A stretch of DNA of 64,000 bases from a virus. The translations under genes were made by a program, and so were the position numbers. The first letter of the stretch is position 1. Each line of letters starts with the position of its first letter. The notes under the pieces were generated by a model that ran no database searches, was not told where the DNA came from, and saw only the letters and a list, made by a program, of their open reading frames with translations. The DNA lies in the IMG/VR virus record IMGVR_UViG_3300032242_002477, positions 1-64,000 of that record. One strand, 5' to 3'. Positions 22,701 through 51,522 of this stretch are shown here, in pieces.

Positions 22701-22993
22701 AAAAATGGCGTTACGACGCTAAATGTTCAGGTATGGATACCGAACTTTGGTTTCCTCCGCGTGATAAAGACTTATATAAACCCATTGCTGATAGAGCTAA
22801 GGCGATTTGCTTTGGCAGGGATGGTCTGGAAGAATGTCCAGTAAGGTTGCAGTGTTTGTTGTACGCTGAAAGCAACAACGAACAGCACGGTATCTGGGGC
22901 GGGCTATCGCATCGTGAAAGAAACGCGTTAAAAAGAAAAGCTGAAAAAAACGGTTCAACATTAGAAGAATGGGTATTAGCTGGTAAAAAATGA
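22673..22993 (+). CDS. whiB: WhiB-family transcription factor
   Basis: C..MDTELWFP...C...CPVRLQC...GIWGG. Confidence 0.92.
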   Translation: MHLYEDEGVEKWRYDAKCSGMDTELWFPPRDKDLYKPIADRAKAICFGRDGLEECPVRLQCLLYAESNNEQHGIWGGLSHRERNALKRKAEKNGSTLEEWVLAGKK

Positions 22994-33408: not shown

Positions 33409-33870
33409 GTGGCTTTATTAATGTATCTAGACGGAGTACTCAGAAACGGGAAAAAAGTTCCGATTCGCGAGTCAATGGCTTTTTATCGTAGTACAAAAGA
33501 AAATATTAAAATAATTCTAGCTGCTGACAGTAAGTCTGAAGGTGACCAATGGCTGCGTACTCATAATTTAAAGCAGTTTGACGATATTGTGGGCGATGAG
33601 GTACCTATGGTAGCCCCCACCTTGCAGATTAGTCAGGCAGAATACATTCGTTCTCAGGGACAAGGCAAGTTGTCGATGGTTATCACCGCAGACCCTGAGC
33701 TGGCTAAAGAGTTATTAGAGCGCGGGTTTACCGTAATGTTATTCCTAAACCCGTTGTACGCAGACCCAGCCAGCCGACCAGATAGTTCTGAAGGCCGCCG
33801 TAAATGGGAAGACATTACATCTGCCATAGACCGACAACAGGAATTATTTATGGAAGACCCACGAACTTGA
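33409..33870 (+). CDS. HAD-like protein
   Basis: 'MYLDGVL' degenerate motif I. Confidence 0.45.
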   Translation: MALLMYLDGVLRNGKKVPIRESMAFYRSTKENIKIILAADSKSEGDQWLRTHNLKQFDDIVGDEVPMVAPTLQISQAEYIRSQGQGKLSMVITADPELAKELLERGFTVMLFLNPLYADPASRPDSSEGRRKWEDITSAIDRQQELFMEDPRT

Positions 33871-35342
33871 ACATAATATATTTGGGTGCCGAAGTCCCTA
33901 GTAATAGAACCATTTTGGAAGAATCTGGGGCCTCCCATGTTGGCGTCAGCTTTTGGCGGCTAACAAAGCGTGGGATGCCTAAAACTAAGGCTTATCTGTT
34001 ATCAAATTATTTTAGCCCTAATATGAATATATTTGTTCATCCAGGTATACCACGGGGAGAGAATTTAGACCGACTGCAGCTAGAAGCCTTTGCCGCCGAG
34101 TACGAAGAGTTTGTGGCAAATAATATAGACCGTATTAATATGTTTACAGAGGTTACCCATCCACAGCTTAGCCAAGCCTTTATAGAGGAACAACGTAGGA
34201 CTTGTTGGTCTGAGGTTACGCCGTCTAAATTCTTACCTGTATGGGCTACAGAGACTGGAAAACAGGGTCTTGAAGAGTTAGCCCTAAAATATTTAGATAT
34301 AGGTATATCGGGCGAAAGTATAGAGGAGTTTACTTGGTTAGCTTCTGAAACCCGTCGGTTGCGTCAATATGGCACTCGTTTTCACGCCCTAGCTTGTGCT
34401 AAACCTGATAATTTACGACAAGTTTGTGTTGAGTCAGCTTCGACTTTATCGTGGATTTCCCCTATGACTAGAGGCGAAACTATAGTTTGGGACGGTACTC
34501 GTTTAGTCCGTTACCCAAAGAAAATGAAAGACCAAGCCCGTACAAGATATCGTAAAGTGTACGAAAAGTCTGGTGTTGATTTCGATAAGATTATGGAAGA
34601 CGATGATAGAGAGGTTTGTAAATTAGCCGTATGGTCATACCAACAATTGGAGATAAAACTAAGCATGATTAACAATAATGGTTCAGACGGCTATGAGTTA
34701 TATGATAACAGTGACGATTTAGATGAGTCTTTATTTGAGGAAAGTACCCCCAGCGATGCTGATAAGAAGGGTATTGATGTACGGAAACTTGAACCAAGAA
34801 ACCCATCTGAAATGGTTGCGCTACCAGTATTTGGGTATGAGTTTAAAGAGGTAATTGAGAATGAAAATGGCAAGGATGTAATTAAAGAAGTTCCTGTTAT
34901 AAAGTCAAATTCAAGTACTTTAAGAGCATGCGATACTTGCTTTGTAGCTTCTAACTGTCCCGCATTTAAGCCTCAAACCATGTGTGCATTTAACTTACCA
35001 GTAGAGGTAAAGACTAAAGAACAACTTAAGAGTTTAATTAACACAATAATTGAAATGCAAGGTCAACGCGTTGCTTTTATGCGTTTTGCTGAGGAAATGA
35101 GCGGCGGATACGCTGACCCGAATGTATCGCAAGAAATCGACCGTTTGTTTAAGTTAATTAAAACTGTTAAAGAATTGGATGACTCTAGAGAGTTTATTAG
35201 AATGACTGTAGAGCGCCAAGGAGGGGCAGGTGTGTTGTCTTCTATATTTGGAGATAAGGCACAAGCCCTAAAAGAACTACCTAATAATGGGTTGGATGAG
35301 GACCAAACAACGCGTATTATCCAGCAATCTATTGAAGAATAG
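33867..35342 (+). CDS. TGT/DpdA-like TIM-barrel protein fused to a Cys-cluster C-terminal domain
   Basis: 'FHALA...ESASTLSW...RGE' resembles TGT 'HGFG...S.DSSSW..RYG'; CDTC..SNCP...C. Confidence 0.45.
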   Translation: MNIIYLGAEVPSNRTILEESGASHVGVSFWRLTKRGMPKTKAYLLSNYFSPNMNIFVHPGIPRGENLDRLQLEAFAAEYEEFVANNIDRINMFTEVTHPQLSQAFIEEQRRTCWSEVTPSKFLPVWATETGKQGLEELALKYLDIGISGESIEEFTWLASETRRLRQYGTRFHALACAKPDNLRQVCVESASTLSWISPMTRGETIVWDGTRLVRYPKKMKDQARTRYRKVYEKSGVDFDKIMEDDDREVCKLAVWSYQQLEIKLSMINNNGSDGYELYDNSDDLDESLFEESTPSDADKKGIDVRKLEPRNPSEMVALPVFGYEFKEVIENENGKDVIKEVPVIKSNSSTLRACDTCFVASNCPAFKPQTMCAFNLPVEVKTKEQLKSLINTIIEMQGQRVAFMRFAEEMSGGYADPNVSQEIDRLFKLIKTVKELDDSREFIRMTVERQGGAGVLSSIFGDKAQALKELPNNGLDEDQTTRIIQQSIEE

Positions 35343-37571: not shown

Positions 37572-38227
37572 TTACCACATCCCTAAATATTTCTCTCTTA
37601 AGTTGTCGTGACCTTCGTAGGCTTGGTACTTGGTAGAATATCTCTCTAAATGCACTGAGTTCATATCAGAGTCAAACACTACGGTTTGAAATATTAAAGG
37701 GGGTTCATTAGGTGTCCAGCGGTTATATGAGCTATTGACTGGGGTATGGGTTGGCATATCTACTCCAACCCATTTAGTAATAATTAAATACCCATTTAAA
37801 TCGTGCTTTCTATTAAATATTTTACCGCTGGATAAAGCGCACCACTCTTTTAAATTAATGCTTTCTCCATCTTCATTGAAGAATACATTAGAATCATAAT
37901 CCTTACGAGTAAGGACTATTTTATTTTTAGTCATTAAACTGCCACTTTTACTCTAATAGTTGCTTTAAATGATTGAGGTTTTTCGTTAACAAAGTTATCC
38001 TCAACCCATTTAACAGACTTTTTACCTGTCCAAGAAAGCAAGAAAGCTTTAGCCTCTCTTTTACCTGCCGACGCACTTGTTGTGGCTGAGTAAACTGTTT
38101 TACTTTCCAAAAAATCATTTTCTGCGGTTTGTTCAAGTAGTGCTCCTGTAATCAACCAAGCACCGCCTTTAGTTTGAATTTTGTCAACTGTTAGGTGAAC
38201 TTCTACTTCTTTTTTCTTTATTGCCAT
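37572..38227 (-). CDS. Two hypothetical proteins (37572-37934, 37934-38227)
   Basis: Coupled ORFs. Confidence 0.55.
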
Positions 38228-38652
38228 TATATTTTCTCCTTATATTTTTTTATTTTAGTTGGCCAATAATACGGAATATCATTACTTACCTGGAACTGAG
38301 GGCCGTAATGTTCTGGGTCTTTTCGCAGCAAATTTGATTGGTGGGAGATGTGGAACTCTGCGTCACCTAACCACTGCGGAAAGTTTGTGTTGGCATTATT
38401 TGTGAACTTGGGTAATAGACTATCATTAAAACCTCTATGAATCCACTCACGACAGATGATAAATCCGTATTTATTAAGGGCTGGCTCGAACCCCTGCCAC
38501 ATTAAAACAGCAGGGTGATTTCGCCAGCCTTTAGTATTACCTGCTAACACATTTAATATTTGATACGCCTCTACTCGTTGCTTACCGAGTCGCTTGTTAT
38601 CCAAGCTCTTCGCGGTTTGTTCAAAGTCGGGGTATGGCAAAAAAGTCTGCAC
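38227..38652 (-). CDS. Pyrimidine-dimer DNA glycosylase family (MSMEG_6728-like)
   Basis: 'QTFLPY...LDNKRLGKQRVE...HPAVLMW...SHQSNLLRKDP'. Confidence 0.85.
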   Translation of the reverse strand: MQTFLPYPDFEQTAKSLDNKRLGKQRVEAYQILNVLAGNTKGWRNHPAVLMWQGFEPALNKYGFIICREWIHRGFNDSLLPKFTNNANTNFPQWLGDAEFHISHQSNLLRKDPEHYGPQFQVSNDIPYYWPTKIKKYKEKI

Positions 38653-38807
38653 TATTCCTCCCAATACTTTACGATAGTTTTAATGGTGGTGTGGATATGG
38701 CAATCACACTCATCACCACCCATATTCTCATCAAACTCAAAGTGTCCTAAGTTATCCTCATAAATTACATCTATAAGTTCCTTAATTGTGTAAAGTTTGT
38801 ATCCCAT
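38652..38807 (-). CDS. 51-aa hypothetical protein, absent from ORF track
   Basis: MGYKLYTIKELIDVIYEDN...; abuts neighbours. Confidence 0.55.
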   Translation of the reverse strand: MGYKLYTIKELIDVIYEDNLGHFEFDENMGGDECDCHIHTTIKTIVKYWEE

Positions 38808-38810
38808 AGG

Positions 38811-39065
38811 TTACGCTACTTTTCTTTTAGACACAACTGTCACAGGCGACTCATAGCCTGTGCCGTCGTAAACTCTACCGCCCCACACGCCATAAGTACC
38901 GACGTGACTGTCTGCGTATTTTCGGCAAGCTTCGATTAAGTGGCATTTGTTACAGATACTTATTGCAAGTGCTACCTCCTGCTTACGTCGAAAGTTGTTA
39001 GAAGGAAAGAACACTTCGGAGTCTGTTTGGGCGCATAACTGCGTTCCGTCATACGGATTATTCAT
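38811..39065 (-). CDS. whiB: Second WhiB-family protein
   Basis: CAQTDSEVFFP...CNKC....C...GVWGG. Confidence 0.88.
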   Translation of the reverse strand: MNNPYDGTQLCAQTDSEVFFPSNNFRRKQEVALAISICNKCHLIEACRKYADSHVGTYGVWGGRVYDGTGYESPVTVVSKRKVA

Positions 39066-39191
39066 TAAAGTTCTCCACATATCTATCGCACTCCCGACAA
39101 TCACCTTCGTTAACTCCTGCGATATGAGTCCACTTTCGATTCTTACAAATTAATTCGTTTGGGACATATTCGCCTAATATTAATTCATCTT

Positions 39192-39404
39192 TCATAGTGT
39201 TAATCCTGCCTTTCGTAATGCTGCTCGTATTTTGTATAAAGCTCGTACATCGCTTGGAGTTTGCGATGAAAAATATATAAATCCGTCAGGTCTTATCCAT
39301 TTAATATGACCACCGTTACTTTTTTCCAACCTCCAACCCTCTGATACGGCTACCCGCATAATTTTTTGTAGCTCACGATTGTTCGATATTTTGCGTAATC
39401 GCAC
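39192..39404 (-). CDS. HicA-like mRNA interferase fold
   Basis: 'GWRLEKSNGGHIKWIRPDG...TPSD'. Confidence 0.65.
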   Translation of the reverse strand: MRLRKISNNRELQKIMRVAVSEGWRLEKSNGGHIKWIRPDGFIYFSSQTPSDVRALYKIRAALRKAGLTL

Positions 39405-39521
39405 GTTCTTGCTCCTCCAATTTTTTTATGACTCGTTTGGTTTGGGCATTAGGTACTAATTGCCATAATATTTCTTTTGCCAATTTAATAGTATTAAGTT
39501 GAATATTTTTTTCTGTGTCGT

Positions 39522-41501
39522 TCATCGACGTGCTCCAATCTGTGCCTTAACGATATCGCTGGCAATCTCCACCAAGTGACGAGGTTCAGTAATAACATTA
39601 AAGAACTGGGCATAGTGTCGATACTGCTCAATGGACTCTACTTCATCAAACCCTTCGTAGATGTGACCAATAAACACGGTGCTGGTAATGACTCCCTTGT
39701 CGTTGAGTCGTTTTACTACATCATCGCAAGGTTCAGAATTATCAAATCCACCGTCAGTTATGATGAATAGTAATTTGGTAGAGCGCGAAGTCATATCAAA
39801 TATTTGTTCGGCTTCCGTAAGTGCACCAGTTGGATTTGTAGTTCCGTTTGTGTGAAGTACTGGAACTACATGGGGGTCTGTATCCTCATCAGCACTAAAC
39901 ATTAAACGGCTATTACTATTAAAAGAATATACGGTGGTGTTAGCGTTAAGTGCTTGAAGCCCACGCTTGATAGACCATACCGCATGGGAAGCGTGGAGAA
40001 CACGACCGCTCATTGAACTTGAGCAGTCTACAAGAATTACCGCTTCCATTTCTGTAGAATAATCAGCTTCCTCCCAGCGGTCAAACATACGATACAGGTC
40101 GTTGATACCTGAGTTCATAGTGCGTTGGACATTAAGTCGACCCTGAGGAACTTCGCGTACCCACGACTGCTCGTTATCTAATTCTAAGCGTTCGAGTTCA
40201 CGCGCAAACTCATCTGAAGCGTGACGATAATCCTCCATAACCGAACTTTTAGATGTGTTAGAGCGACCGAGAGTACCGTTGTATTCGTCGTTGAGATACA
40301 CGGACTCACGGAACTGTTGAATTTCTTGGGCAACGTGCGTGTTTGTTTTGAGTTTTTTAATGCGCTCGTTGATTTGGTCAGCTAACTTGTGGTCGGCTTC
40401 TGAGTATTGGTGCTCGTTTTCTATATCATTATTAGTGGTATCAAAATTATTATCATCACCTGAACCGCTATCTGAATTACTACCTGTTAATGATACTTCT
40501 GGAGCATTACCGAACATCTGTTCGGCTTTCTTGGAATCCTGCTCCTGAGCTTTTCCGCTAGTAGCACGACCTTTAGTAAGTGGGTTGTCTTTGCCACCGC
40601 AAGGGCTACTGATTTTAATATTATTACCAGCAGAATTATCGCCCTGTTTATCGCTTATTTCCTGGCCAGGAACTCCGCCACTACCGTTACCTTTTGGCAT
40701 ATCATTACCTGTGCCCACGATATCTGCAAACCGTTTGATGAGTGCTTTGGCTAAGTAATTATTGTCAGGAAAGGTAAGATAAATATATTCGTCGATGATG
40801 TCGGCAACGGATTTGGCGAGTTCCTGTCCATAATTATCTACGAACATTGAAGTAATCCGTTGGCGAATCCCAAAGTCCATATATTTTCTGCCATGAATTA
40901 ATATGAACGAATCAGCACTTTCGGACTCCAACATGACGTATCGCAGTGCGTTAGCTTCAAGAAAGAATCGAACGCTGGGAAAACGAGCCGTCATAAGTAA
41001 CTCGATACGTTGGTCCTCTAATATATTAAAGGCGTTCATAAAGTCGTTTTCAATTACCCACTTAACGAACTCCGACCCACCTCTAGGCGTGTAAAGGCTA
41101 TGGCAGATTTCGTGATAGTTAATTCCGTGAAGGCTAGGAATATCCTCCTCCGATAGCAACTTCACGACTTCACGGTTGAACGAGATATTTTTGCCGTCGT
41201 TCCAAGCCGACACCTGTGTAGGGATTTCGGGCGTTACGATTTGCACCGTAATATCCTCACCAGTAAGGATACGGTCGAACTTGGTATACACTTTTGTAGC
41301 TGATATCAAAGCCGAATCTTTTGAGCGGATAAAGCAGTCGATTTCTACTAATAATTGCTCATATTCGTGAATCGTATATACATCATCATTTAGAAGGTTT
41401 TTGACCGTATCAACACCGAACTCCTCGTCAATGATTTCCCAGTTGGCGCGTAAAAATTCGACAGTAATCTCCTTCTGAAGCTTTAAATGAGCGTGTGTCA
41501 T
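39522..41501 (-). CDS. Metallopeptidase-like (HExxH) + VWA domain protein (CobT-like)
   Basis: HEICH, 'NILEDQRIE', MIDAS DCSSSM, 'ITDG'. Confidence 0.8.
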   Translation of the reverse strand: MTHAHLKLQKEITVEFLRANWEIIDEEFGVDTVKNLLNDDVYTIHEYEQLLVEIDCFIRSKDSALISATKVYTKFDRILTGEDITVQIVTPEIPTQVSAWNDGKNISFNREVVKLLSEEDIPSLHGINYHEICHSLYTPRGGSEFVKWVIENDFMNAFNILEDQRIELLMTARFPSVRFFLEANALRYVMLESESADSFILIHGRKYMDFGIRQRITSMFVDNYGQELAKSVADIIDEYIYLTFPDNNYLAKALIKRFADIVGTGNDMPKGNGSGGVPGQEISDKQGDNSAGNNIKISSPCGGKDNPLTKGRATSGKAQEQDSKKAEQMFGNAPEVSLTGSNSDSGSGDDNNFDTTNNDIENEHQYSEADHKLADQINERIKKLKTNTHVAQEIQQFRESVYLNDEYNGTLGRSNTSKSSVMEDYRHASDEFARELERLELDNEQSWVREVPQGRLNVQRTMNSGINDLYRMFDRWEEADYSTEMEAVILVDCSSSMSGRVLHASHAVWSIKRGLQALNANTTVYSFNSNSRLMFSADEDTDPHVVPVLHTNGTTNPTGALTEAEQIFDMTSRSTKLLFIITDGGFDNSEPCDDVVKRLNDKGVITSTVFIGHIYEGFDEVESIEQYRHYAQFFNVITEPRHLVEIASDIVKAQIGARR

Positions 41502-42874
41502 TAGAGGGTACCTCCTACGAATTCCTCAGTGCAAGAGAACCCCTCATCAGGTTGGAAAGTAATGTCGATTTTAATACCGAAGTCGCTGGCAATATTGACC
41601 TTGTAGGTATTCTCGACCGTCATACGGACTGCATTACGCTCCTTGCCTACATTAAAGCCGTTGAGAAAGGAATACATCGCGTAATCCAACCCTAGACGTT
41701 CGACATTTCGTGAGAAAGTAACTAGGTCGCGCGTAGATACTGGCGTGGCTAGTTCGCCCTTGATGTGGCTTTCGCGTAGCGCGTTCGCCATTTCGATGAG
41801 CGACTTTGATTTGACCAAAGCTTTCTCAATCTTAGGGTCGTAATCAAACTCCAACTTATGCGCCCAGCGGTTCTTGAACGCCTCATTTAGTGGTCGGGTT
41901 CCGCGGTACATTGGGTTCATATCAGCGACAATAAGAAGGTTTGGGTGAGCCTTGATAATTTCGCCGTCTTTGCCCATTAGTTGAATCTCACGTCGGTCGT
42001 CGAGGAGTGAGAATATAGCGGTTGTCACGCGCTCAGGGAGGAAGTTAACCTCATTGAGAAGCAATACACCGCCATTTCGGACAATTTGGGTAACTGCACC
42101 GTCTTGCCAAGCATAGTGTCCGTCTGTTGTAGGAATCCATTGACCAATCCACTGTGAAGGCTCTGAGCCGTTGTGACTGGAAATATTATAGTAATTGAGA
42201 TTTCGGGCTGAGGCATAGGCTAAAACGCTCATCGTCTTACCCGAGCCTGTTGGACCGAATACAAGCACGTTCTCAGCGTTAGCCATAGCGGAGTCGTAGA
42301 TATCGAACTCCGAGAGGTTGCCTAGCACTTTACGCTGGACATACTCTGTAGCCCACTTCTTGTCGGGAACTTGGGCAAGAACTACTTCATTGGAGGTCGT
42401 GCTTTGACGGGTATCGGTCTTAGCGGTTGCCTGTGGGGAAATTGGGGCTTGGCTGATTGGTTTAATATCAGTATGCCCACCGTCAATACGATAGGTATTG
42501 ATAGAGGAATCACCAATAAGCAAACGTTTATAGAACAGTTCAACCGCTATGGAATACGGCTCCAAGTCGTCGTGAGTTGGGTGCTCGTATTCAGCCCATT
42601 GGTTGATAATGCGAGAGGCTAGGGGAGTGATAATGCCGTTCTCAACCTGTAAGATATTATTAGCAGTAGTAGGAAAGGCGTACATATAGCAATTCGCTTC
42701 TACCTCAGGGAGCTCCTCTAAGGAAATTTCGCGCCAAGCTGAACCGCGACCACGTTGACCAGTATATTCTCTATGATAGATAGAGATACCATTAGATACA
42801 GGGACTAGAAGGGTCTGATATACCCCTTGACCTTCCCTCTTGCCGATAATGAGAACACTTAGGCTATTTGCCAT
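41501..42874 (-). CDS. MoxR/CbbQ (CobS-like) AAA+ ATPase
   Basis: GPTGSGKT, 'LLNEVN', 'MNP.YRGT..LNEAFKNR', 'STR'. Confidence 0.88.
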   Translation of the reverse strand: MANSLSVLIIGKREGQGVYQTLLVPVSNGISIYHREYTGQRGRGSAWREISLEELPEVEANCYMYAFPTTANNILQVENGIITPLASRIINQWAEYEHPTHDDLEPYSIAVELFYKRLLIGDSSINTYRIDGGHTDIKPISQAPISPQATAKTDTRQSTTSNEVVLAQVPDKKWATEYVQRKVLGNLSEFDIYDSAMANAENVLVFGPTGSGKTMSVLAYASARNLNYYNISSHNGSEPSQWIGQWIPTTDGHYAWQDGAVTQIVRNGGVLLLNEVNFLPERVTTAIFSLLDDRREIQLMGKDGEIIKAHPNLLIVADMNPMYRGTRPLNEAFKNRWAHKLEFDYDPKIEKALVKSKSLIEMANALRESHIKGELATPVSTRDLVTFSRNVERLGLDYAMYSFLNGFNVGKERNAVRMTVENTYKVNIASDFGIKIDITFQPDEGFSCTEEFVGGTL

Positions 42875-42904
42875 TTATAAGCCCCTTTCATTGGGTTATG
42901 GCTG

Positions 42905-42960
42905 ATAATGCCATATATAGCAGACAATACCTACACCCTCTCTCTGTGAAGTAGGTCACA
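42905..42960 (-). promoter_or_regulatory. Cassette promoter 1: CRP box 42945-42960, AGGGTGTAGGT, -10 CATTAT
   Basis: TGTGAagtaggTCACA; drives the AAA/VWA operon. Confidence 0.8.
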
Positions 42961-43211
42961 TCTCTTTGGCTCTCGCTCTCTCGCTCTTGTTCTTTAGCTC
43001 TCTCACTCTCTCTGCTCTCTTATCTCTTATCTCTTTTGTGGCTATCTATTGCCTGTGGTACTTATCACATAACAAGCCTGAGACGGCTTCAAATATCTGG
43101 TGGTGCCCGTGTCGCTTTGTCGACATTGTGGGCAGTAGCCAAAATTGCCTATAAAGCAATAAGCAGATATGTTGATTTGTCGACATTTCATGTCGCATAA
43201 TCGTGCATATC

Positions 43212-43324
43212 AGGCTAGTTCTGCAAAATCAAGCCGACACGCCGAATTAGCAGTGTGAGATTGGTCACAACTCTCTTCACACACTATTCCCAATAGAGAA
43301 TGGGGTGGGTGGGCCAACACAAAC
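43212..43324 (-). promoter_or_regulatory. Variant element 2: CRP box 43254-43269 with GGCGTGTCG in place of AGGGTGTAGGT, plus G3/CAACACAAAC motif
   Basis: TGTGAgattggTCACA; TAGCCT at 43212-43217. Confidence 0.65.
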
Positions 43325-43385
43325 AAGCGGCGAGCACGCCAAGAAGCCCCCACGCACGCGGCGCGGGGGCTTTGGGGCTGAGGGA

Positions 43386-44078
43386 TTACCTCTTCTTGAT
43401 GGAGAACAACACGTCCTTGCCTCCTTTCACGCATATATTGCAGGCGATACAGGCGCCTTTTAAGCTTATTTGCTTACGATTCTCGGGGCACATTGCAGCT
43501 CGGGGTAAAATCGCCTTACCGTCGGCAAATGTCTCTTCTAACATCGCTATTGATATCCCCATATCTTTTAATTCCATCGCCGTTGACAGATTCTCAGTGT
43601 CTGCGGAGAAATATAGGCTTAAATTTGTTAGCTCTAAGCTATGGAGAAATTTCGCGCTATGCGAATTACGCGTGTATACCCAAAATATAATATTAGGATG
43701 AGACTTAATGACATGAGCCCACGCCTCAGTGTAGGTCATGGAGAAAAAATCTCCATCCCAATGGATGCGGAATTTCTTATCGGCAGACCATTTCTCACAT
43801 TCACTCTCAAATGCGATAACCATGCTATTAAGTAGGTTAATCATGGTATCTCTCTTAGCCTCTCTCAATAGGCTATAGTTATACATGAGCACATCTCTCA
43901 CGCTAGGCCTAATTTTTTCTAGTTTGCCTGCGTAACAGATACTTTCACAGATAGAAGTAGCTCCTGGACAGGAATACGCCTTGCCACTAGGCAAGCCGAA
44001 GGAATTACCTATGCGAGCAGACCCGCTAGGCGTGAGGCTATTAGCCACTTTGACATCTTTAGACCTTTTAAGTTCCAT
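43386..44078 (-). CDS. Mycobacteriophage Gp88-like Cys-cluster (radical-SAM-like) protein, leaderless
   Basis: 'SFGLP....CPGAT..C...CYA', 'RIHWDGDF', 'YTR', 'C..CNIC'. Confidence 0.75.
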   Translation of the reverse strand: MELKRSKDVKVANSLTPSGSARIGNSFGLPSGKAYSCPGATSICESICYAGKLEKIRPSVRDVLMYNYSLLREAKRDTMINLLNSMVIAFESECEKWSADKKFRIHWDGDFFSMTYTEAWAHVIKSHPNIIFWVYTRNSHSAKFLHSLELTNLSLYFSADTENLSTAMELKDMGISIAMLEETFADGKAILPRAAMCPENRKQISLKGACIACNICVKGGKDVLFSIKKR

Positions 44079-44084
44079 AGGTAG

Positions 44085-44199
44085 ACCTTATCTCGCTATA
44101 TCTAGCAGACCTACACCCTGATGGTGTGAATTAGGTCACAGTGAACTCTCTTTAATATATATTCCCTAAATGGACATGGGAGGGTGGGCCAACACAAAC
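44085..44199 (-). promoter_or_regulatory. Cassette element 3 (CRP box 44125-44140; -10 TAAGGT)
   Basis: TGTGAattaggTCACA; predicted +1 is the ATG at 44078. Confidence 0.85.
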
Positions 44200-44257
44200 A
44201 AACGCGCCCCGCGAAAAGCGGGGAGCGGGTTTTAAGCCCGCCCCCCAGCCTTTCCGC

Positions 44258-44698
44258 TTAGAGGTACTGTTTCGACCAATCGACAGGTAGAGCAATCTCA
44301 TCTTTGCTAGTCATCTCAAGATAAGAGAGCATATTTGCGCGTTCATTGTAATTACTGTTATTTTCAGGCTTAATCGGCTCACTAGGCTTATTAGGCATAG
44401 TGTCAAACTCAGAGGCGAAAATGCCCTTGATAGTTAGCCGAATATCAACACCTGTACTTTGGCGAGCGTTATTTACCCACTCCCAATCGTCAGACACATT
44501 GGCATAGGTAATCTCATTACTCTTAGCAAGCAAGGAAGACACTTTCTTGACATATAAGGTTATGGACTTTTCATAAGCAATTTTCGCCTTTTCATAAGCC
44601 TTAACCTCTCTCTCATATTCTTTGAGAGTATCAGCCTGTTTTCTTTCAATTTTAGCGATAAGTAGCGTCTTATCAACTACGAGCCTTGTGGTTGCCAT
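44258..44698 (-). CDS. Hypothetical cassette protein
   Basis: Own promoter, SD AAGGGG, terminator-like hairpin. Confidence 0.7.
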   Translation of the reverse strand: MATTRLVVDKTLLIAKIERKQADTLKEYEREVKAYEKAKIAYEKSITLYVKKVSSLLAKSNEITYANVSDDWEWVNNARQSTGVDIRLTIKGIFASEFDTMPNKPSEPIKPENNSNYNERANMLSYLEMTSKDEIALPVDWSKQYL

Positions 44699-44755
44699 AA
44701 GGCGAACCCCCCTTATTTATCTGTAACAGAACCCTGTTGTTCAGTTACATAGCAG

Positions 44756-44879
44756 AACCTATCGCACCAAACTCCTAAGACCTACACCCTCCGCGTGTGA
44801 CATACATCACACTCTAGTTTTATCTCTCTTACTCCATACTCCCTATAATATTAAACGGGGTGGGAGGGCCAACACAAAC
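44756..44879 (-). promoter_or_regulatory. Cassette element 4 (CRP box 44796-44811; -10 TAGGTT)
   Basis: TGTGAcatacaTCACA. Confidence 0.85.
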
Positions 44880-45013
44880 ATATTTTCGCAGCGGGCAATC
44901 TCGCGACAAAGGTCGTCAAGGTCGTCAAGGTCGTCACCTAAAAAAATAGCGGGCTCTGCCTAGAAACAGAACCCGCTATGTAGTCAGGGGGTGACTACCT
45001 CACTAAAACCCCG

Positions 45014-45262
45014 TTAGTCACGCTCCCAATTGTCATAATCAACGGGGTCATATTCTCCCCCAGAACTATAACTCTCAGAACAATCAGGGCATGTCCAATC
45101 TGCCGTCCAATAGACTACCCCATGCTCGTAGACTTCGAGAGTAGGTATTTCTCCCGAAAACCCACATTCGCACTCTAAGTCTTGAACTCCATCAGACTCA
45201 TCATATCCAGAAATAGCGGGCTCATTACCCGATACCCCAGGAGGATAATTACTCAATGACAT
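45014..45262 (-). CDS. Acidic zinc-ribbon cassette protein
   Basis: 'YPPGV', CECG...CPDC. Confidence 0.65.
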   Translation of the reverse strand: MSLSNYPPGVSGNEPAISGYDESDGVQDLECECGFSGEIPTLEVYEHGVVYWTADWTCPDCSESYSSGGEYDPVDYDNWERD

Positions 45263-45536
45263 CTTCAACCTCCAATATAGTGTTAAGGAACTCTTCCAAA
45301 TGGTGTTGCTCAACAATAGCGTTAGCAGGTGCCGTTGCCTCACCCTTGAAAGTGACAGGACTAGGCAATTCAATCTGCCGATAGCTGTCACCCTCTGCCA
45401 CAGCATAGAGAGCCTCAATACATGGTATAACCATGCTTGATGGAATAGGCGGATAAAAATTACCCGTCAAATGAACCTTGACTCCAACTTCCAATGGAAC
45501 TGATACTGATAAGTCTTGTGCGAAATTACGCCCCAT
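45249..45536 (-). CDS. Hypothetical cassette protein
   Basis: SD GAAAGGGGG; 'HL..NFYPP', 'HHL'. Confidence 0.7.
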   Translation of the reverse strand: MGRNFAQDLSVSVPLEVGVKVHLTGNFYPPIPSSMVIPCIEALYAVAEGDSYRQIELPSPVTFKGEATAPANAIVEQHHLEEFLNTILEVEDVIE

Positions 45537-45561
45537 GACTTCCCCCTTTCTAGGTAAGCAA

Positions 45562-45678
45562 AACTTATCACGCCACAATAGGCAGACCTACACCCTCTTG
45601 ATGTGACTTATATCACAACTCTCTCCACCACCTATTCCCTTTAGGGTTAGGAAGGGTGGGTGGGCTTCCAACACAAAC
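45562..45678 (-). promoter_or_regulatory. Cassette element 5 (CRP box 45602-45617; -10 TAAGTT)
   Basis: TGTGActtataTCACA. Confidence 0.85.
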
Positions 45679-45761
45679 ATCCCACGCGTTCAAGCGTGTC
45701 GCGAAACGCGAGAACCCGACCCCCACCAAGCAGGGAGTCGGGTCGCGTTTTTGCTAGGGGG

Positions 45762-46244
45762 CTAGCAAATCTCGAAGCCACCACAAGCTAACAAAAATTC
45801 GGCAAATTCTTGGACATTCTCTACCGAGAACGGATAGTGAGTCTGCCAAGGTCGCTTAGTTTTTTTGCCATCACAGGAATTACAAGGGTCGCGGAAAGTA
45901 ACTTCACCCTCTACATAATCGAACCAACCTTCCTGAACTTGAACAATCCCCACACCTTTACAAAAATCGCAAGGTTCATCCTCAAGGCTATCCAACGACT
46001 CTTGATATTGACGAGCATATTCGGCAGTACGACCCGAAGCAATTTCCGCTAACAAATCCTCAGCGAGAGCAATCGCCCCTTCACTATCGAACCCGTCACC
46101 GCTATTGCTATGACCATCAATCTCTGAACACTCAGGTCGTATCTGCTCACAGTAATCCCAAAGTGGTCGCCACCACCACACATTATTGCGAAAATACTCA
46201 CCCTTAGTAGAAATCGGCGTTTTACCATAGACATCCATACCCAT
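45762..46244 (-). CDS. Cassette protein with DnaJ-type zinc-finger insert
   Basis: 'YFRNNVWWWRPLW'; CDFCKGVG...CNSCDG. Confidence 0.7.
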   Translation of the reverse strand: MGMDVYGKTPISTKGEYFRNNVWWWRPLWDYCEQIRPECSEIDGHSNSGDGFDSEGAIALAEDLLAEIASGRTAEYARQYQESLDSLEDEPCDFCKGVGIVQVQEGWFDYVEGEVTFRDPCNSCDGKKTKRPWQTHYPFSVENVQEFAEFLLACGGFEIC

Positions 46245-46246
46245 AA

Positions 46247-46540
46247 TTATTCACCCATACTCTCTGCTAGTTTTTGACACATCATAAAATCGTTATACTC
46301 ACTCGCCCCTAATTGAGTCGCCACAAGAGAAATAGTTTCAATCAAGGCTGATGCCTCATCTTTCTCCACATTGTGAACCTCAATCAAACGAGATATAGCG
46401 ACAGTTTTTAAGAAACTAAGGAACATTGACAGGTTATTATTCCACCATGCCATATCCTCATTACCAATTTCAAGATTATTTTTCATTAAATCCATTAAAT
46501 CGAACATCCGTTTAATTTTTTCAATATTAGGCTTATCCAT
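46247..46540 (-). CDS. Hypothetical cassette protein
   Basis: SD GAAAGGGGG. Confidence 0.65.
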   Translation of the reverse strand: MDKPNIEKIKRMFDLMDLMKNNLEIGNEDMAWWNNNLSMFLSFLKTVAISRLIEVHNVEKDEASALIETISLVATQLGASEYNDFMMCQKLAESMGE

Positions 46541-46570
46541 AATATTGAACCCCCTTTCTTGGTAGACCAA

Positions 46571-46693
46571 ACATTATCCCACCGACTAGGGCAGACCTAC
46601 ACCCTGCCATTGTGACTTACATCACATTAAACTCTCTTCTTCCCTTTATTCCCTGTATTGGTAACTGGGTGGGTGGGCAGTTCCAACACAAAC
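46571..46693 (-). promoter_or_regulatory. Cassette element 6 (CRP box 46611-46626; -10 TAATGT)
   Basis: TGTGActtacaTCACA. Confidence 0.85.
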
Positions 46694-46785
46694 TTTTCGC
46701 GGGCGGGCTTGCCACGCGTTCGGGCGTGTCGCAATAAAAAAAACCCCCACCTTTCCTAAGGGCAGGGGTTCTTTCCGCTTGGGGG

Positions 46786-47340
46786 CTATTCCTCTAGAGG
46801 AATTATTAAATCAGAATTCTCTAGTATTTTATCAACTACTGTACTATGTAATTCTGTTCTCATCATAGAGAATCCGCTGGCTGGCCAACCTGCTTGATAA
46901 CATCTTGCTAGTAGATTGGTAAGATTAGACGCGTCAGACTTAGTTTCGCCATGACTAAGTGTTAAATACGAATTAGCGAGCGCGGTATCTCCTAATTCAT
47001 ACTTGAACGAGGAAAGTACGGCATAGATAGGAGCCTTATAACCATCAGGAAAGGACATCCCGATAATCTCTAGGAAATCGGCAACATCTGAAACGGAGGA
47101 CTCATTAGGTAATCCGATAACATAATCTCTTATGTCTAGGACTTCACTATTGACTCCCACTAGGAAATCAAGCAATAAATCGTCGGTAATCTCACTCTCT
47201 CGACCTTCACGCCATAATTTATACGCCGTATCAATCGCTAGTTTAGACTTGCCAACTGTGGTGCTATGTGCGGAAACCTTTTCCGCTTGGAGTGATGTAA
47301 TCATCACTTCCCCCAATCTGTCGGGTGTACTGTCCGACAT
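46786..47340 (-). CDS. DUF4192-like protein, leaderless
   Basis: 'IRDY....AP....S..YE.GD..LA...L...LL...AGWP'; ATG within 1 nt of predicted +1. Confidence 0.65.
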   Translation of the reverse strand: MSDSTPDRLGEVMITSLQAEKVSAHSTTVGKSKLAIDTAYKLWREGRESEITDDLLLDFLVGVNSEVLDIRDYVIGLPNESSVSDVADFLEIIGMSFPDGYKAPIYAVLSSFKYELGDTALANSYLTLSHGETKSDASNLTNLLARCYQAGWPASGFSMMRTELHSTVVDKILENSDLIIPLEE

Positions 47341-47345
47341 GGCAA

Positions 47346-47470
47346 ACACTATCTGACCAATACCCTTAGACCTACACCCTGTCTATGTGACTTATGTCAC
47401 ACTCTGTAACTCTCTTCTTCCCATAATTCCCATAATAAAGAGATGGGTGGGAGGGCAGCTCAACACAAAC
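47346..47470 (-). promoter_or_regulatory. Cassette element 7 (CRP box 47386-47401; -10 TAGTGT)
   Basis: TGTGActtatgTCACA. Confidence 0.85.
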
Positions 47471-47520
47471 ATTTTTTGCCCACGCGCTCGGGCGTGTCGC
47501 GGAGCGTGAAAAACGGGGGC

Positions 47521-47888
47521 TTACGCCCCCGCCTTCCTATGATTTTTGCGCGTACACTTACCGCAAGGCTTACCAGTAATTGCCACGAGTAAGTCATTAT
47601 CATCTCCGCATTGTGGGCAGACACTATCTAATAAGTGACGGCTCACGCCGTCACCTCCTTTCGTAGTTGTGCCTCGCACTCTTCGAGGATTGCTAGAGCG
47701 TATTCGCGCCCCTTGATGCCACGACCTGGGTTGATACCTGTTAAACGGGTGAAAGCGTGGAGAGATGATTCTTTCGTGAGTTGTGCTCGTGATGTGTTCC
47801 ATGTGCGGATTTCAAGATTCAACCCTTGCTTAAGGATAAGAACCTGAATCGGTGATATCGAGAATTCTACTAATTGACCTTGTGTCAT
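47521..47888 (-). CDS. Two small cassette genes (47643-47888; 47521-47646 CPQC/CGKC peptide)
   Basis: SDs GAAAGGGGG and GGAGG; GTGA overlap. Confidence 0.6.
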
Positions 47889-47911
47889 TTAGTGCCCCCT
47901 TTCACTATCAA

Positions 47912-48036
47912 ACATTACAGCCCCAACCAGCCAAACCTACACCCTGCCATTGTGATTTATGTCACACGCTTAGACTCTCTTCTTCCCTTTATTCCCTTAT
48001 ATATTGAGCTGGGTGGGTGGGCTGCTCAACACAAAC
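47912..48036 (-). promoter_or_regulatory. Cassette element 8 (CRP box 47951-47966; -10 TAATGT)
   Basis: TGTGAtttatgTCACA. Confidence 0.85.
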
Positions 48037-48103
48037 ATTTACCGCGCGACCGCGGACATGCGAAAGCCCCCACCTTTCGGCAGGGGCTCCGCGTTAGCGG
48101 GGG

Positions 48104-48498
48104 CTAACCTTCTTGACCGCACGCCTTGAGGAAACGGTACGTGTCAAAATTACTGTTGAATTGTCGGCAAGCTCTCGCGACTGCTTGACATGTCGCTAAG
48201 TCTGCCCCGACTGCCTTCAGCTCATCCGCTAAGGCTTGAAAGTGTTTACGGCTCATGCTCTCACCCCCTTAAGATGAGCGTTTAATTCTGCCTTGACTGT
48301 CCGAGCCGTATCGCCCCTCCAGTATGTCAGATTAGACAATGCGTAGAGAACAATAGATGAACCGCTGTCCTCGTAATAATTGTCAGATATTGACGTGAGC
48401 GATTCCATAGCCGAGATGTAAGGCTCAGCGTAAACGTACCAATTCTTATAAGCACACTCAGATTTAACAATCTGAGCTAATTCTGCGAGAGTTCGCAT
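48104..48498 (-). CDS. Two small cassette genes (48253-48498; 48104-48256)
   Basis: 'YALSNL..WRG..A..VK.EL'; 'MSRKHF...N.NFD..RFL.AC'; SDs present. Confidence 0.65.
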
Positions 48499-48539
48499 TC
48501 TTGCCCCCTTTACTAGTTCGGCACTTTGCCGATAAGAGA

Positions 48540-48663
48540 AACCTACCACCCACCACCAGCAAGACCTACACCCTGCCATTGTGACATAAGTCACACGCCT
48601 AAACTCTCTCCTCCTTATTCCCTTTAGGGTTGTGACTGGGTGGGTGGGCAGTCCAACACAAAC
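48540..48663 (-). promoter_or_regulatory. Cassette element 9 (CRP box 48580-48595; -10 TAGGTT)
   Basis: TGTGAcataagTCACA. Confidence 0.85.
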
Positions 48664-48712
48664 AAATAGGGCGAGCCCGCTTTCGCGAGCCCGCCCCTGC
48701 GGAAATTCGGGG

Positions 48713-49042
48713 CTAAACCCCTGCCCCCTCCTCCTCAATTTCCAAGTCCTCGCGTATTAAGTCCGAGAGACAAGAGCAGGAATCTTGCATTTCGAGACAA
48801 TAGCAATCATAGCCAGCGTTGAGATACCTACATTCATCACGGTGAAAAGCTCGCACTACACTATAGCCCTCATCTGTAGGCTTACCGCACACACCACACC
48901 ACTCGACTCTACCTAACTCAAAATTGGCGTGAAACTCGCACAGAACCTCATTATTAAGAGCATACCTTGCTACACCCCCACACTCGCGTGGAAAAAGGTC
49001 AGGACGGACGGAAGTAGAAACATTAAATTGGCAATTTGCCAT
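48713..49042 (-). CDS. Cys-rich cassette protein
   Basis: Own promoter and SD; ten Cys. Confidence 0.6.
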   Translation of the reverse strand: MANCQFNVSTSVRPDLFPRECGGVARYALNNEVLCEFHANFELGRVEWCGVCGKPTDEGYSVVRAFHRDECRYLNAGYDCYCLEMQDSCSCLSDLIREDLEIEEEGAGV

Positions 49043-49086
49043 GAGAAGCCCCCTAAAACGGTGTAGGCGGTGTTGCCTACGGCAAC

Positions 49087-49216
49087 AGTTTATTGCCCCG
49101 ATTACAGAAACCTACACCCTGACCATGTGACATAAGTCACATATACTAGGCATTTCTCTTCAACAACCCCCTTACGAAGTAAGTTAGGAGCTGGGTGGGT
49201 GGGCTCCAACACAAAC
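49087..49216 (-). promoter_or_regulatory. Cassette element 10 (CRP box 49126-49141; -10 TAAACT)
   Basis: TGTGAcataagTCACA. Confidence 0.85.
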
Positions 49217-49293
49217 ATTTCGCCGCGACACGCCCAACCGCGGACATGCGAAAGCCCCCGCCGTGTGGCAGGGGCTCCGCATTTATCCGAGGG

Positions 49294-49698
49294 CTATTCG
49301 GAAACCTCGTGTGAGCACTCGATAACTTCCTCGCTATCCGATACCTTTCCGTCTAGTGAGATAACAGAAAGATTGTCGCTAACCCAATCCTCATCTATTT
49401 CATCGCTGGTAGTAATTGAGAATCGAGCCTTGATTAAGACCTCTACTACATAGTCATAACTCAATATAAGACCAAAGATGCTTGCGATTTCCTGAGTGTG
49501 TTCCTCAAGGTTGTCGCGGTTATCTTTGAGATAAGTTTCGAGCGAATCACGCTGACTATATAGGCGCGATAGTGTCTTAAGATGGTACTGATTAGTACCC
49601 TTGAGATTTTCGATTTCGGATTTTAGTGCGTCATACTCGCTGAGAGTAAGAGTTACTTCCATAGCTACTGCTGGTGTTACTGGTGTATCTGTATCCAT
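49294..49698 (-). CDS. Acidic/coiled-coil cassette protein
   Basis: SD AAGGGGG; own promoter. Confidence 0.65.
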   Translation of the reverse strand: MDTDTPVTPAVAMEVTLTLSEYDALKSEIENLKGTNQYHLKTLSRLYSQRDSLETYLKDNRDNLEEHTQEIASIFGLILSYDYVVEVLIKARFSITTSDEIDEDWVSDNLSVISLDGKVSDSEEVIECSHEVSE

Positions 49699-49745
49699 TG
49701 TATAGCCCCCTTGTTTAGTTATAGTCACACTTTGACTATGCCCTA

Positions 49746-49801
49746 AGGCTACACCACCAACACCCCTCGACCTACACCCTGCTCGTGTGAGCTACCTCAC
49801 A
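49746..49801 (-). promoter_or_regulatory. Cassette element 11 (CRP box 49786-49801; -10 TAGCCT)
   Basis: TGTGAgctaccTCACA. Confidence 0.85.
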
Positions 49802-49820
49802 TTTACCCCCCGACCCTTAA

Positions 49821-49836
49821 TCGAACAGGTGTTCGA
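49821..49836. promoter_or_regulatory. LexA (SOS) box, Gram-positive/actinobacterial type
   Basis: TCGAACaggtGTTCGA matches TCGAAC-N4-GTTCGA. Confidence 0.75.
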
Positions 49837-49876
49837 AAGGGCCACCAGACTTCAGACCCAGGTCATACATAGAAAG

Positions 49877-50359
49877 CTAGGCAGTAGCCGAGTTTTTGAG
49901 CAAATTTGCGCTTTTGCGGATATTGCAGGTTGCGTGGGAGGGCTTTACATTTGAAATAATATTTGGGCCACCTTTGGCTAAAGGAATTACGTGGTCAAGG
50001 TGCAGACCGTACTCCCAGCCTGGTTCACCGCAATTTCGGGTTAATCTCATATCAATTGAGGTATTACAGATATGACACTCCGTACCCCATAGGTCTAACA
50101 CGTCTTTAGTAGAAAAATTAACAGACTTAACTTGTCGTAGTCGTGCTCGTGCTTTTCGGTCTTTTCTTCGGTTCCACTCTGTTTTTTTATGGGGATACCG
50201 CTTGTAATAGTCTTTATCTTGTTGTTTATACTTTTCTGGGTCTTTGGCTATTTGAGCGCGTCTATAAGCAGCTGCTATGGCTTTGCAATCAAGGCACGCT
50301 ATTTCGTTAAGCTTTTTGCAGCGGTAATAGTCCCCTATAGATACCCCATGTTGGTCCAT
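49877..50359 (-). CDS. HNH endonuclease
   Basis: CHIC...'LDHVIPLAKGG.N...NV...H..CN..K'. Confidence 0.88.
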   Translation of the reverse strand: MDQHGVSIGDYYRCKKLNEIACLDCKAIAAAYRRAQIAKDPEKYKQQDKDYYKRYPHKKTEWNRRKDRKARARLRQVKSVNFSTKDVLDLWGTECHICNTSIDMRLTRNCGEPGWEYGLHLDHVIPLAKGGPNIISNVKPSHATCNIRKSANLLKNSATA

Positions 50360-50426
50360 ATGAAAATAATACTACACTTCATAGGCAGTAGCTAAGTTTT
50401 GCGGGTGTTGCAGGTTGTGTTAGTAT

Positions 50427-50621
50427 GTGCGTATGGATAAATTACTGTATACCGCTGTTGAGACTGCAAAGATGTTGAATGTTTCCAGAGCTACAATTTA
50501 CGTGCTTATTCGCGAGGGCAAGTTGAAGCCAGTGCATATCGGGCGTTCTATGCGTGTGCATATTGATGAAATTCGCGGGTTTGTAGATTCGCTTGTTGCT
50601 GATTCTGAGGTGACTGTATGA
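50427..50621 (+). CDS. Excisionase-like HTH protein
   Basis: 'YTAVETAKMLNVSRATIY.LI..GKL....IG...R'. Confidence 0.8.
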   Translation: MRMDKLLYTAVETAKMLNVSRATIYVLIREGKLKPVHIGRSMRVHIDEIRGFVDSLVADSEVTV

Positions 50622-51088: not shown

Positions 51089-51128
51089 CGAAAAAATTGA
51101 AATACCAAATGATGGATAGTAAAGTATC

Positions 51129-51515
51129 CAAGCCATAGAGAAGGAGTTAGAGAGGTGATGTAGGTGGAGATTAAAGAACTTATTGGCATATTTGATGCCT
51201 CTAAAAGGACTTATAGGAACGATTGATGCATTACCGAAGACTTTAGGTCATAATTGATGCGGTGACTTATCAGCGAAAATCGGGTAGCCATGTATTATAC
51301 CTGCCCAACGATTCAAGCCATAGAGAAGGAGTTGAAATGAGAGGGATATGCGATGTTTCAAATTGTTCCATTCCAGATGAATCAAGAAAAATCCATGAAG
51401 ATTTTGAAGTTCTGGACAGAAATGTCTGTTGGGAATGTGGTGAAAGAATCAAAAAAACTGTTGAAAACCACATGGCAAATTTTTTGAATGTCATCCAAGC
51501 CATAGAAAAGGAGTT
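51129..51515 (+). repeat. Three copies of CAAGCCATAGARAAGGAGTT (IQAIEKEL gene end + SD)
   Basis: 51129-51148, 51314-51333, 51496-51515. Confidence 0.9.
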
Positions 51516-51522
51516 AAAATGA
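51337..51522 (+). CDS. Small Cys protein ending IQAIEKELK
   Basis: SD supplied by the repeat; CDVSNC...CWEC. Confidence 0.6.
   Translation: MRGICDVSNCSIPDESRKIHEDFEVLDRNVCWECGERIKKTVENHMANFLNVIQAIEKELK

Follow-up and report, generated by a model that had tools for sequence, protein, structure and literature searches.

The window analysed here is a stretch of 64,000 nucleotides, positions 1 to 64,000 of the IMG/VR virus record IMGVR_UViG_3300032242_002477 (74,580 bp in total), and the element in question is an array of CRP-type boxes, perfect copies of the palindrome TGTGA-N6-TCACA, which lies in the sole leftward gene block of the record. As delimited from the layout of the open reading frames (ORFs) and from Pfam and PHROG matches (Table 1), this block contains, in order, an HNH endonuclease gene, nine cassettes of small genes, a control region, genes for an AAA_5 protein (MoxR/CobS-like), a VWA protein, a HicA-like protein, a WhiB protein and a pyrimidine-dimer glycosylase, and small ORFs. 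A sequence-only reading of the same DNA had reported 11 perfect boxes, and our pattern scan of the window found every one of them where that reading had placed it, spanning 42945-49801. To evaluate the chance level we used dinucleotide shuffles, which gave 0.07 perfect boxes with a largest count of 1, while 11 were reached in 0/100 shuffles. The scan was also run on the whole record and on relatives, as had been proposed: the record holds zero perfect boxes beyond the 11, and boxes recur in the relatives. Tolerating one mismatch adds just three boxes within the window. The arms of the boxes are constant and the N6 spacers variable, an identical spacer being found only in the pair that starts at 48580 and 49126. 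The box array is real and clearly selected, and its members stand as selected CRP-type sites within promoters, given that arms and geometry are kept in relatives whose neighbouring protein is just 44-61% identical.

Promoters, junctions and cassettes

Read on the minus strand, the promoter consists of the box, five nucleotides (N5), AGGGTGTAGGT with two further bases (mostly CT), 15-16 nt and a TAnnnT hexamer, and all ten promoters of this kind serve the leftward block. The 11-mer AGGGTGTAGGT has exactly 10 copies, all on the minus strand and each 5 nt past a box, and a (T/C)AnnnT hexamer begins 33 or 34 nt past the box (17-18 nt past the 11-mer) in 10/10 units, with a gene behind it, which bears out the fixed geometry previously claimed for ten of the 11 boxes. 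When transcription starts are predicted 7 nt after the -10 hexamer, eight units have their box centre at -54.5 and two at -53.5, and the start codon follows 0-51 nt downstream of the start in all ten. With the same prediction, the 13-mer formed by AGGGTGTAGGT plus two bases, which is invariant in the genome, spans -41 to -29, the place of the -35 hexamer. Downstream of TAnnnT there is a short leader with a AAAGGGGG-type ribosome site, followed by ATG. The predicted starts are anchored by the GP88-family gene, whose ATG lies 7 nt after the -10, so that a leaderless mRNA is predicted, and the same holds in a relative (L030).

Between the genes, a cassette unit reads on the minus strand as a stop codon, a GC-rich hairpin whose T-rich tail runs into the invariant GTTTGTGTTG, and then the junction and the promoter. 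The junction module itself is composed of GTTTGTGTTG, a hairpin with loop CCCACCCACC, a second small hairpin and a GA-rich tail or tract, after which comes the box; the promoter of unit 1 stands without such a module upstream. The nine junctions each lie between a GC hairpin with a T-rich tail and a promoter or box, as in the PeSL cassettes of T4-like phages, and, since every cassette closes with a terminator and a conserved structured junction, the array reads as a run of promoter-terminator gene cassettes that may be exchangeable. The junction motif is found in about 45 contigs (64 stretches retrieved from IMG/VR), around differing genes, and the cassette gene at 46247-46540 recurs in the arrays of two other genomes. 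The cassette proteins are mostly without relatives in the databases: 9/10 of those scanned had no PHROG match and 1/10 fell in a family of unknown function, while in Pfam GP88 was the sole clear match, with one other, weak match to a DnaJ zinc finger.

The hairpin with the C-rich loop covaries. Over 30 distinct 5' arms, the mean pairing energy was -3.86 kcal/mol with the own arm and -1.19 with permuted arms (p = 5e-10); by energy the two strands score alike. The second small hairpin shows compensatory changes as well. This comparison of own and permuted arms was used in place of RNAalifold, which found no structure on a MAFFT alignment of the junctions in which the stems were misaligned. The C-rich loop holds an anti-Shine-Dalgarno-like CCUCC, reminiscent of 6C-type RNAs; an Rfam search over 37-51 kb returned nothing relevant, and the 6C RNA (RF01066) had no match there at E <= 1.

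Table 1. Coordinates of the leftward block, its composite promoters and associated features (positions in the window; -10 and gene assignments predicted)
Feature	Position	Strand	Box	11-mer AGGGTGTAGGT	-10	Genes predicted to be driven, or remarks
HTH_17 protein gene	50427..50621	+				MerR/excisionase-type, 64 aa, Pfam E 2.9e-13; first gene of the diverging rightward block
Leftward block	37572..50359	-				Sole leftward block of the record
LexA (SOS) box	49821..49836					Perfect TCGAAC-N4-GTTCGA, actinobacterial type; 19 bp upstream of the first CRP-type box; only perfect site of the record
Unit 1	49746..49801	-	49786-49801	49770-49780	TAGCCT 49746-49751	ORF 49294-49698
Junction module	49155..49216	-				
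Unit 2	49087..49141	-	49126-49141	49110-49120	TAAACT 49087-49092	ORF 48713-49042
Junction module	48606..48663	-				
Unit 3	48540..48595	-	48580-48595	48564-48574	TAGGTT 48540-48545	ORFs 48253-48498, 48104-48256
Junction module	47975..48036	-				
Unit 4	47912..47966	-	47951-47966	47935-47945	TAATGT 47912-47917	ORFs 47643-47888, 47521-47646
Junction module	47410..47470	-				
Unit 5	47346..47401	-	47386-47401	47370-47380	TAGTGT 47346-47351	ORF 46786-47340, possibly leaderless
Junction module	46632..46693	-				
Unit 6	46571..46626	-	46611-46626	46595-46605	TAATGT 46571-46576	ORFs 46247-46540, 45762-46244
Junction module	45621..45678	-				
Unit 7	45562..45617	-	45602-45617	45586-45596	TAAGTT 45562-45567	ORFs 45249-45536, 45014-45262
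Junction module	44824..44879	-				
Unit 8	44756..44811	-	44796-44811	44780-44790	TAGGTT 44756-44761	ORF 44258-44698
Junction module	44146..44199	-				
Unit 9	44085..44140	-	44125-44140	44109-44119	TAAGGT 44085-44090	GP88-family gene 43386-44078
Junction module	43271..43324	-				Precedes the orphan box
Orphan box 10	43254..43269		43254-43269			Junction module before; GGCGTGTCGGCTT after it instead of the 11-mer; no gene behind
Control region	42961..43253	-				Conserved, non-coding, ~300 bp; upstream of the AAA_5 operon, opened by the box at 43254
Unit 11	42905..42960	-	42945-42960	42929-42939	CATTAT 42905-42910	AAA_5 (41501-42874), VWA (39522-41501) and downstream genes

The control region contains GGCGTGTCGGCTTGA, two TGTCGACA palindromes, GGCTACTGCC, a box with one mismatch at 43054 and a GA-rich tract, and its elements recur in distant relatives (L032, L036, L042, L047, L052 and others). 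In these relatives the region has, in addition, DnaA boxes (TGTGGATAA), a perfect parS (GTTTCACGTGAAAC, 12 copies in the family) and tandem CRP-type boxes. The control region could be an origin or a regulatory hub.

At the other end of the block, the divergent region 50360-50433 holds GGGTGTTGCAGGTT, which resembles the boxes of the -35 region, and a TAGTAT -10 hexamer. The HTH_17 gene, whose ATG comes 6 nt after this hexamer, is probably leaderless, and a housekeeping-type promoter is plausible for it from the sequence. That HTH_17 might bind the lineage-specific AGGGTGTAGGTCT box is a speculative suggestion.

Relatives and the contents of the slot

A search for related loci with a single protein found none, and an alignment-based AAA_5 search found 60 loci in IMG/VR. 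One of the two closest is L030 of the pair L030/L118, whose AAA protein is 60% identical. It keeps the same module, with eight perfect boxes within 3.4 kb upstream of its AAA gene, yet the box in its -35 region is GGGTGGCAGGTT in every copy. In more distant relatives a single box, perfect or nearly so, is retained in the control region that precedes the AAA gene. Among the distinct junction modules, 42/118 are followed by a perfect box and 14/118 more by a box with one mismatch, 56/118 together. The number of boxes per genome varies from 0 to 11, and three complete or nearly complete relatives have zero.

The logo of the 48 distinct boxes found behind junctions is TGTGA-Y-N-T-A-N-R-TCACA, with a peak of TAnnnT 33-34 nt downstream. 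The consensus of Escherichia coli CRP, TGTGATCTAGATCACA, has a pyrimidine at position 6, a purine at position 11 and a central T-A. These secondary preferences are found in the phage boxes too, which have C or T at position 6 in 43/48, G or A at position 11 in 39/48 and A at position 9 in 34/48.

The place occupied here by the CRP-type box, which we call the slot, is filled differently in other members of the family. In L094, L123 and L099/L121/L142 it holds two or three perfect TTATCCACA DnaA boxes just upstream of a TTGACA -35 hexamer. In L158, a 7.3-kb contig binned in a metagenome-assembled genome (MAG) of the Nanopelagicaceae, seven modules have GTTCAYC direct repeats with an 11-nt period in the slot; from their sequence these repeats resemble the PHO box of Streptomyces PhoP, and this would be a phosphate-wired cassette promoter. 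In L116, L125, L152 and L106 the slot carries repeats of the ATAACG..CGTTAT type (14/118 modules) and GGCGTGTCG boxes (24/118).

Consensus sites of conserved host proteins thus stand, in other lineages, in the slot itself (LexA, DnaA or PhoP type) or in the control region beside it, and we counted such host-type sites in 1.46 Mb of family loci. The perfect actinobacterial LexA box occurs 12 times, against 0 in shuffles, the DnaA box TTATCCACA 198 times, against 15 in shuffles, and parS 12 times, against 0.01 expected, while the reversed-motif controls gave 0-1. The DnaA box of the family is predominantly the low-GC form, since TTGTCCACA has only 4 copies. It is possible, and we propose it tentatively, that in a widespread family of freshwater actinophages of ~90-98 kb the slot is filled lineage by lineage with sites for different host regulators (CRP, LexA, DnaA, PhoP), the CRP site having been taken up by all ten promoters of this phage, and that CRP acting at an unprecedented -54.5 beside a factor on the 13-mer would make a new composite class of CRP promoter, possibly cAMP-independent in view of the lack of class III adenylate cyclases among the genomes searched from the likely host clade. 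The position of the array relative to the contig ends was considered as a sign of early expression and dropped, the 113-123-bp 'terminal repeats' of relatives looking like assembly overlaps.

As for the -35 region, the exact pattern of box, N5 and AGGGTGTAGGT gave in IMG/VR only single chance matches outside this genome, which suggests that the 11-mer is private to this lineage. In L119, L143 and L144 the -35 hexamer is TTGGCG, TTAGCG or TTGACA and the spacing from box to promoter is unchanged, suggesting that the geometry is older than the private 13-mer. The invariance of the 13-mer here, and its concerted change in the sister lineage, suggest in turn a dedicated reader. Two further identifications of this element were rejected: a host promoter type, the pattern of 11-mer and -10 being absent from the candidate host MAG (see below), and a PafBC-type promoter (tGTCgg-N10-TAnnnT), which is absent from all ten promoters; its sole match in the record, at 33529, lies across the genome from the array.

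Candidate readers of the boxes

The genome has genes for baseplate proteins, DnaB, a PolA-type polymerase, RecA, a ribonucleotide reductase and a DpdA-like transglycosylase, and among isolated phages it comes nearest to those of Streptomyces and Gordonia, with 40-46% identity between proteins. It has two whiB genes, at 22673-22993 (+) and 38811-39104 (-), the second at the distal end of the operon of the last CRP-type promoter. Given that whiB serves as a marker of actinophages (PMC6802176), the two genes mark the virus as an actinophage, and, together with the actinobacterial LexA box, they led us to reject a cyanobacterial host, which the GC content of 42% and the cyanophage matches of the AAA protein had brought up. 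When the junction motif was searched in 185,579 species genomes, it had one multi-copy match, the 7.3-kb contig with seven modules in a 'Candidatus Nanopelagicaceae' MAG. We therefore take the Nanopelagicaceae as the candidate host clade on indirect grounds, the binned contig being only a hint, though one in keeping with whiB, with the base composition and with the lakes from which the relatives come.

Other features of the record were observed along the way. The HicA-toxin-like ORF (39192-39404, -) is a weak match (E 6e-4), and the pyrimidine-dimer glycosylase (38227-38664, -) is of the T4 DenV type. A DpdA-like queuine tRNA-ribosyltransferase (33804-35342, +) hints at 7-deazaguanine modification of the DNA. 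A 30-nt repeat occurs three times (51126-51155, 51311-51340 and 51493-51522), ~183 nt apart, each copy ending in a ribosome site and a start codon, which points to tiny paralogous genes arranged in tandem. A SpoVS-family protein (Pfam E 5e-29), unusual for an actinophage, is encoded in the replication-side block, between 9365 and 33870.

The palindrome is the published consensus of mycobacterial CRP (M. tuberculosis Rv3676, M. smegmatis Crp1) and of C. glutamicum GlxR, so that the literature gives the same 16-bp sequence as the sequence-only reading had recognised. A CRP-family gene of the phage's own was not found: the search for HTH_Crp_2 domains was blank for the record and for five partial records of relatives carrying box arrays, and that for cNMP-binding domains was blank for the record and for ten relatives (six of them >= 91% complete). 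The candidate host clade does have a matching protein. In the Nanopelagicaceae MAG there is a CRP orthologue, with E 1e-73 to M. tuberculosis CRP, whose helix-turn-helix differs from the M. tuberculosis one by a single conservative change, the recognition helix RETVNK being identical, and the orthologue is found once per genome in 36/41 sampled Nanopelagicaceae genomes. From the sequence, the boxes would be selected, high-affinity sites of CRP/GlxR type; the affinity is predicted, and it is published for C. glutamicum that GlxR binding is greatly strengthened once a natural site is made a perfect consensus.

On these grounds we give an even chance to the proposal that the CRP orthologue of the host docks on the boxes of the cassette promoters. 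Ten boxes would then be the upstream half of a composite promoter, made of box, 13-mer and TAnnnT -10. In this uncultured actinophage from fresh water the promoter stands ahead of the nine small-gene cassettes and of the AAA_5-VWA operon, and the strength of cassette transcription would be governed by host CRP, probably together with a second factor at the 13-mer. Transcription itself would be carried out by the host RNA polymerase with its housekeeping sigma factor, since no phage sigma factor was found in the record or in seven relatives (including six >= 91% complete) and no phage RNA polymerase in the same genomes, the latter being a weak blank because the search missed its own controls. 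The fixed distance, and a site that falls upstream of the stretch covered by the polymerase, make activation likelier in our judgement than repression. We infer here the binding and the direction of its effect, and likewise the early timing and the identity of the host.

The sequence-only reading had gone further and suggested that the genes depend on cAMP-CRP and that infection is tuned to the carbon or energy status of the host. This part is unsupported: a class III adenylate cyclase (PF00211) was found in none of 41 genomes of the candidate host family, with C. glutamicum positive as a control, and in none of nine phage records, and specific DNA binding by mycobacterial CRP is weakly cAMP-dependent in the published work. 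The link with cAMP is doubtful. A ligand of some kind is nevertheless likely for the host CRP, whose phosphate-binding cassette is intact in sequence, and the presence of CRP without a class III cyclase in the Nanopelagicaceae raises the question of which ligand is sensed.

Several observations weigh against host CRP as the reader of the boxes. The first is the position: the centre at -53.5/-54.5, counted from predicted starts, falls outside every known class of CRP activation, that is -41.5 (class II) and -61.5, -71.5, -82.5 or -92.5 (class I), and none of the activating CRP sites published for mycobacteria (-58.5, -65.5/-93.5 and -81.5) equals it. Secondly, the candidate host MAG (1.3 Mb) has one perfect site, suggesting that the native CRP sites of this host are degenerate. 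In several relatives, moreover, 3-6 boxes abut one another at 16-17 bp, which is tighter than expected for CRP dimers and recalls an operator array; higher-order assemblies on DNA are, on the other hand, reported for M. tuberculosis apo-CRP. The host assignment leans on the whiB genes, the base composition and a single binned contig. Among the sequencing runs listed as containing the stretch there is no RNA run, and its DNA occurs in one study only. Finally, 23% of the phage genome lies outside the record and many ORFs have no recognisable fold, so that there is room for a binder encoded by the phage itself.

This last point leads to a different explanation, in which the palindrome is the operator of a dimeric repressor or activator from an unrecognised ORF family of the phage, its identity with the CRP consensus is coincidence or mimicry, and the differing slot palindromes of the lineages are co-evolving pairs of phage regulator and operator. 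The portion of the genome outside the record leaves space for such a gene, most cassette proteins are ORFans, the abutting boxes in the control regions of relatives have the look of operators, and the ATAACG..CGTTAT-type and GGCGTGTCG repeats in the slot are unassigned. We nevertheless consider it rather unlikely. Phage operator specificities usually drift, and the arms of the boxes are identical where the flanking proteins have merely 44-61% identity. When 9 genomes were compared all against all, no ORF family was shared by every box carrier and at the same time missing from the box-free complete genomes. HTH_17, the sole clear HTH gene and hence an obvious candidate, was set aside as the box binder, as it was not found in 20 relatives, box carriers among them. 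Four further motifs of the slot or control region also equal the consensus sites of host proteins, and, with five independent matches of this kind in the family, a coincidental match to the CRP consensus is unlikely.

It could also be proposed that the array serves mainly as a decoy, which, multiplied by replication of the phage genome, soaks up host CRP and de-regulates the CRP regulon, any effect on phage promoters being secondary. Eleven perfect sites in 7 kb of phage against one in the 1.3 Mb of the candidate host would suit such a role, as would the observation that a perfect consensus outbinds natural sites for GlxR. A pure decoy, however, needs no fixed spacing, while 10/10 promoter-linked boxes lie 33-34 nt from the -10 and this is kept in relatives; only the orphan and the tandem boxes look like pure decoys. 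As the main role it is improbable, and as an addition to docking of host CRP it is possible. Very improbable is the idea that the boxes have no protein partner and are kept as a junction for recombination or cassette shuffling (a PeSL-type homology patch) or as an RNA or single-stranded DNA structure: they do adjoin a family-wide junction module with a covarying hairpin, and cassette genes recur in different arrays, but invariant 5+5 arms around a variable spacer are the signature of a dimeric protein site rather than of a homology patch, a stem of 5 bp around a 6-nt loop makes a weak structure, and the box is fixed relative to the -10 while its distance to the junction varies by 0-50 nt.

Significance and comparison with known systems

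If host CRP does read the sites, a block of about 25 genes, probably host-takeover genes, would be tied to one global regulator of a host that is thought to be among the most abundant freshwater bacteria. It would show clearly, in a natural setting, a virus wired into the physiology of its host through modular promoter parts, and it would offer a handle on how infection in lakes depends on the state of the host, as the motif is open to mutation and Nanopelagicales hosts are now culturable. What CRP senses in a clade with no recognisable class III cyclase would become a question of its own, and the box at -54.5, combined with a 13-mer in the place of the -35, could expose a new way of recruiting actinobacterial RNA polymerase. 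The sequence-only reading knew of no described phage with such a dense CRP regulon, and our full-text literature searches likewise found no phage array of CRP sites; the nearest isolated phages, BRock and Wakanda, have no box array.

With the operators of actinobacterial CRP and GlxR the array shares, on sequence comparison, an identical palindrome, but host sites are mostly imperfect and scattered, whereas here 11 perfect ones lie within 7 kb at a fixed distance from the promoter. The class I and II CRP promoters of E. coli (lac and gal types) also have a CRP-type site at a fixed distance upstream of a recognisable -10, an arrangement that activation by contact would call for; in the phage, the -35 is replaced by an invariant 13-mer unlike TTGACA and the box centre is at -53.5/-54.5.

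Boxes for host regulators are known in phages, such as the LexA boxes of temperate phages and the PHO boxes of cyanophages. By analogy with these, the array may borrow a global regulator of the host to time or tune phage genes, but in those phages there is one site or a few, while here there is a whole family of promoters, and the slot switches among CRP-, LexA-, DnaA- and PhoP-type sites across the phage family. Arrays of phage operators are known as well: the stoperators of mycobacteriophage L5 and the conserved inverted repeats before the early promoters of phiC31 are read by a known phage repressor. Like them, the array has many copies of a short site, intergenic and within one transcription block, beside conserved promoters and terminators; unlike them, it has no repressor gene that we could find, and its site equals the consensus of a host factor.

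Regarding the -35 region, the nearest concept would be sigma adaptation or appropriation, as by PafBC (PMC8635444) and in the T4 MotA/AsiA middle promoters, with which the phage promoters share a canonical -10 and an element other than a sigma site in the place of the -35; the adaptor protein is hypothetical, and the parallel is one of analogy. The PafBC element differs in being a -26 motif (tGTCgg-N10-TAnnnT), absent here, while the phage 13-mer lies at -41 to -29. As for the cassettes, the PeSL cassettes of T4-like phages (PMC2839356, PMC4122927) have in common with those described here terminator and promoter motifs flanking small, variable genes of unknown function in a hyperplastic block, and in both cases the motif is conserved across phages and the genes between its copies differ. 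The host phylum and the sequences are different, and the covarying hairpin with the C-rich loop and the variable slot for regulator sites belong to the phages described here. The array would combine, in a new form, two known kinds of arrangement, phage promoters that depend on a host regulator and promoter-terminator gene cassettes.

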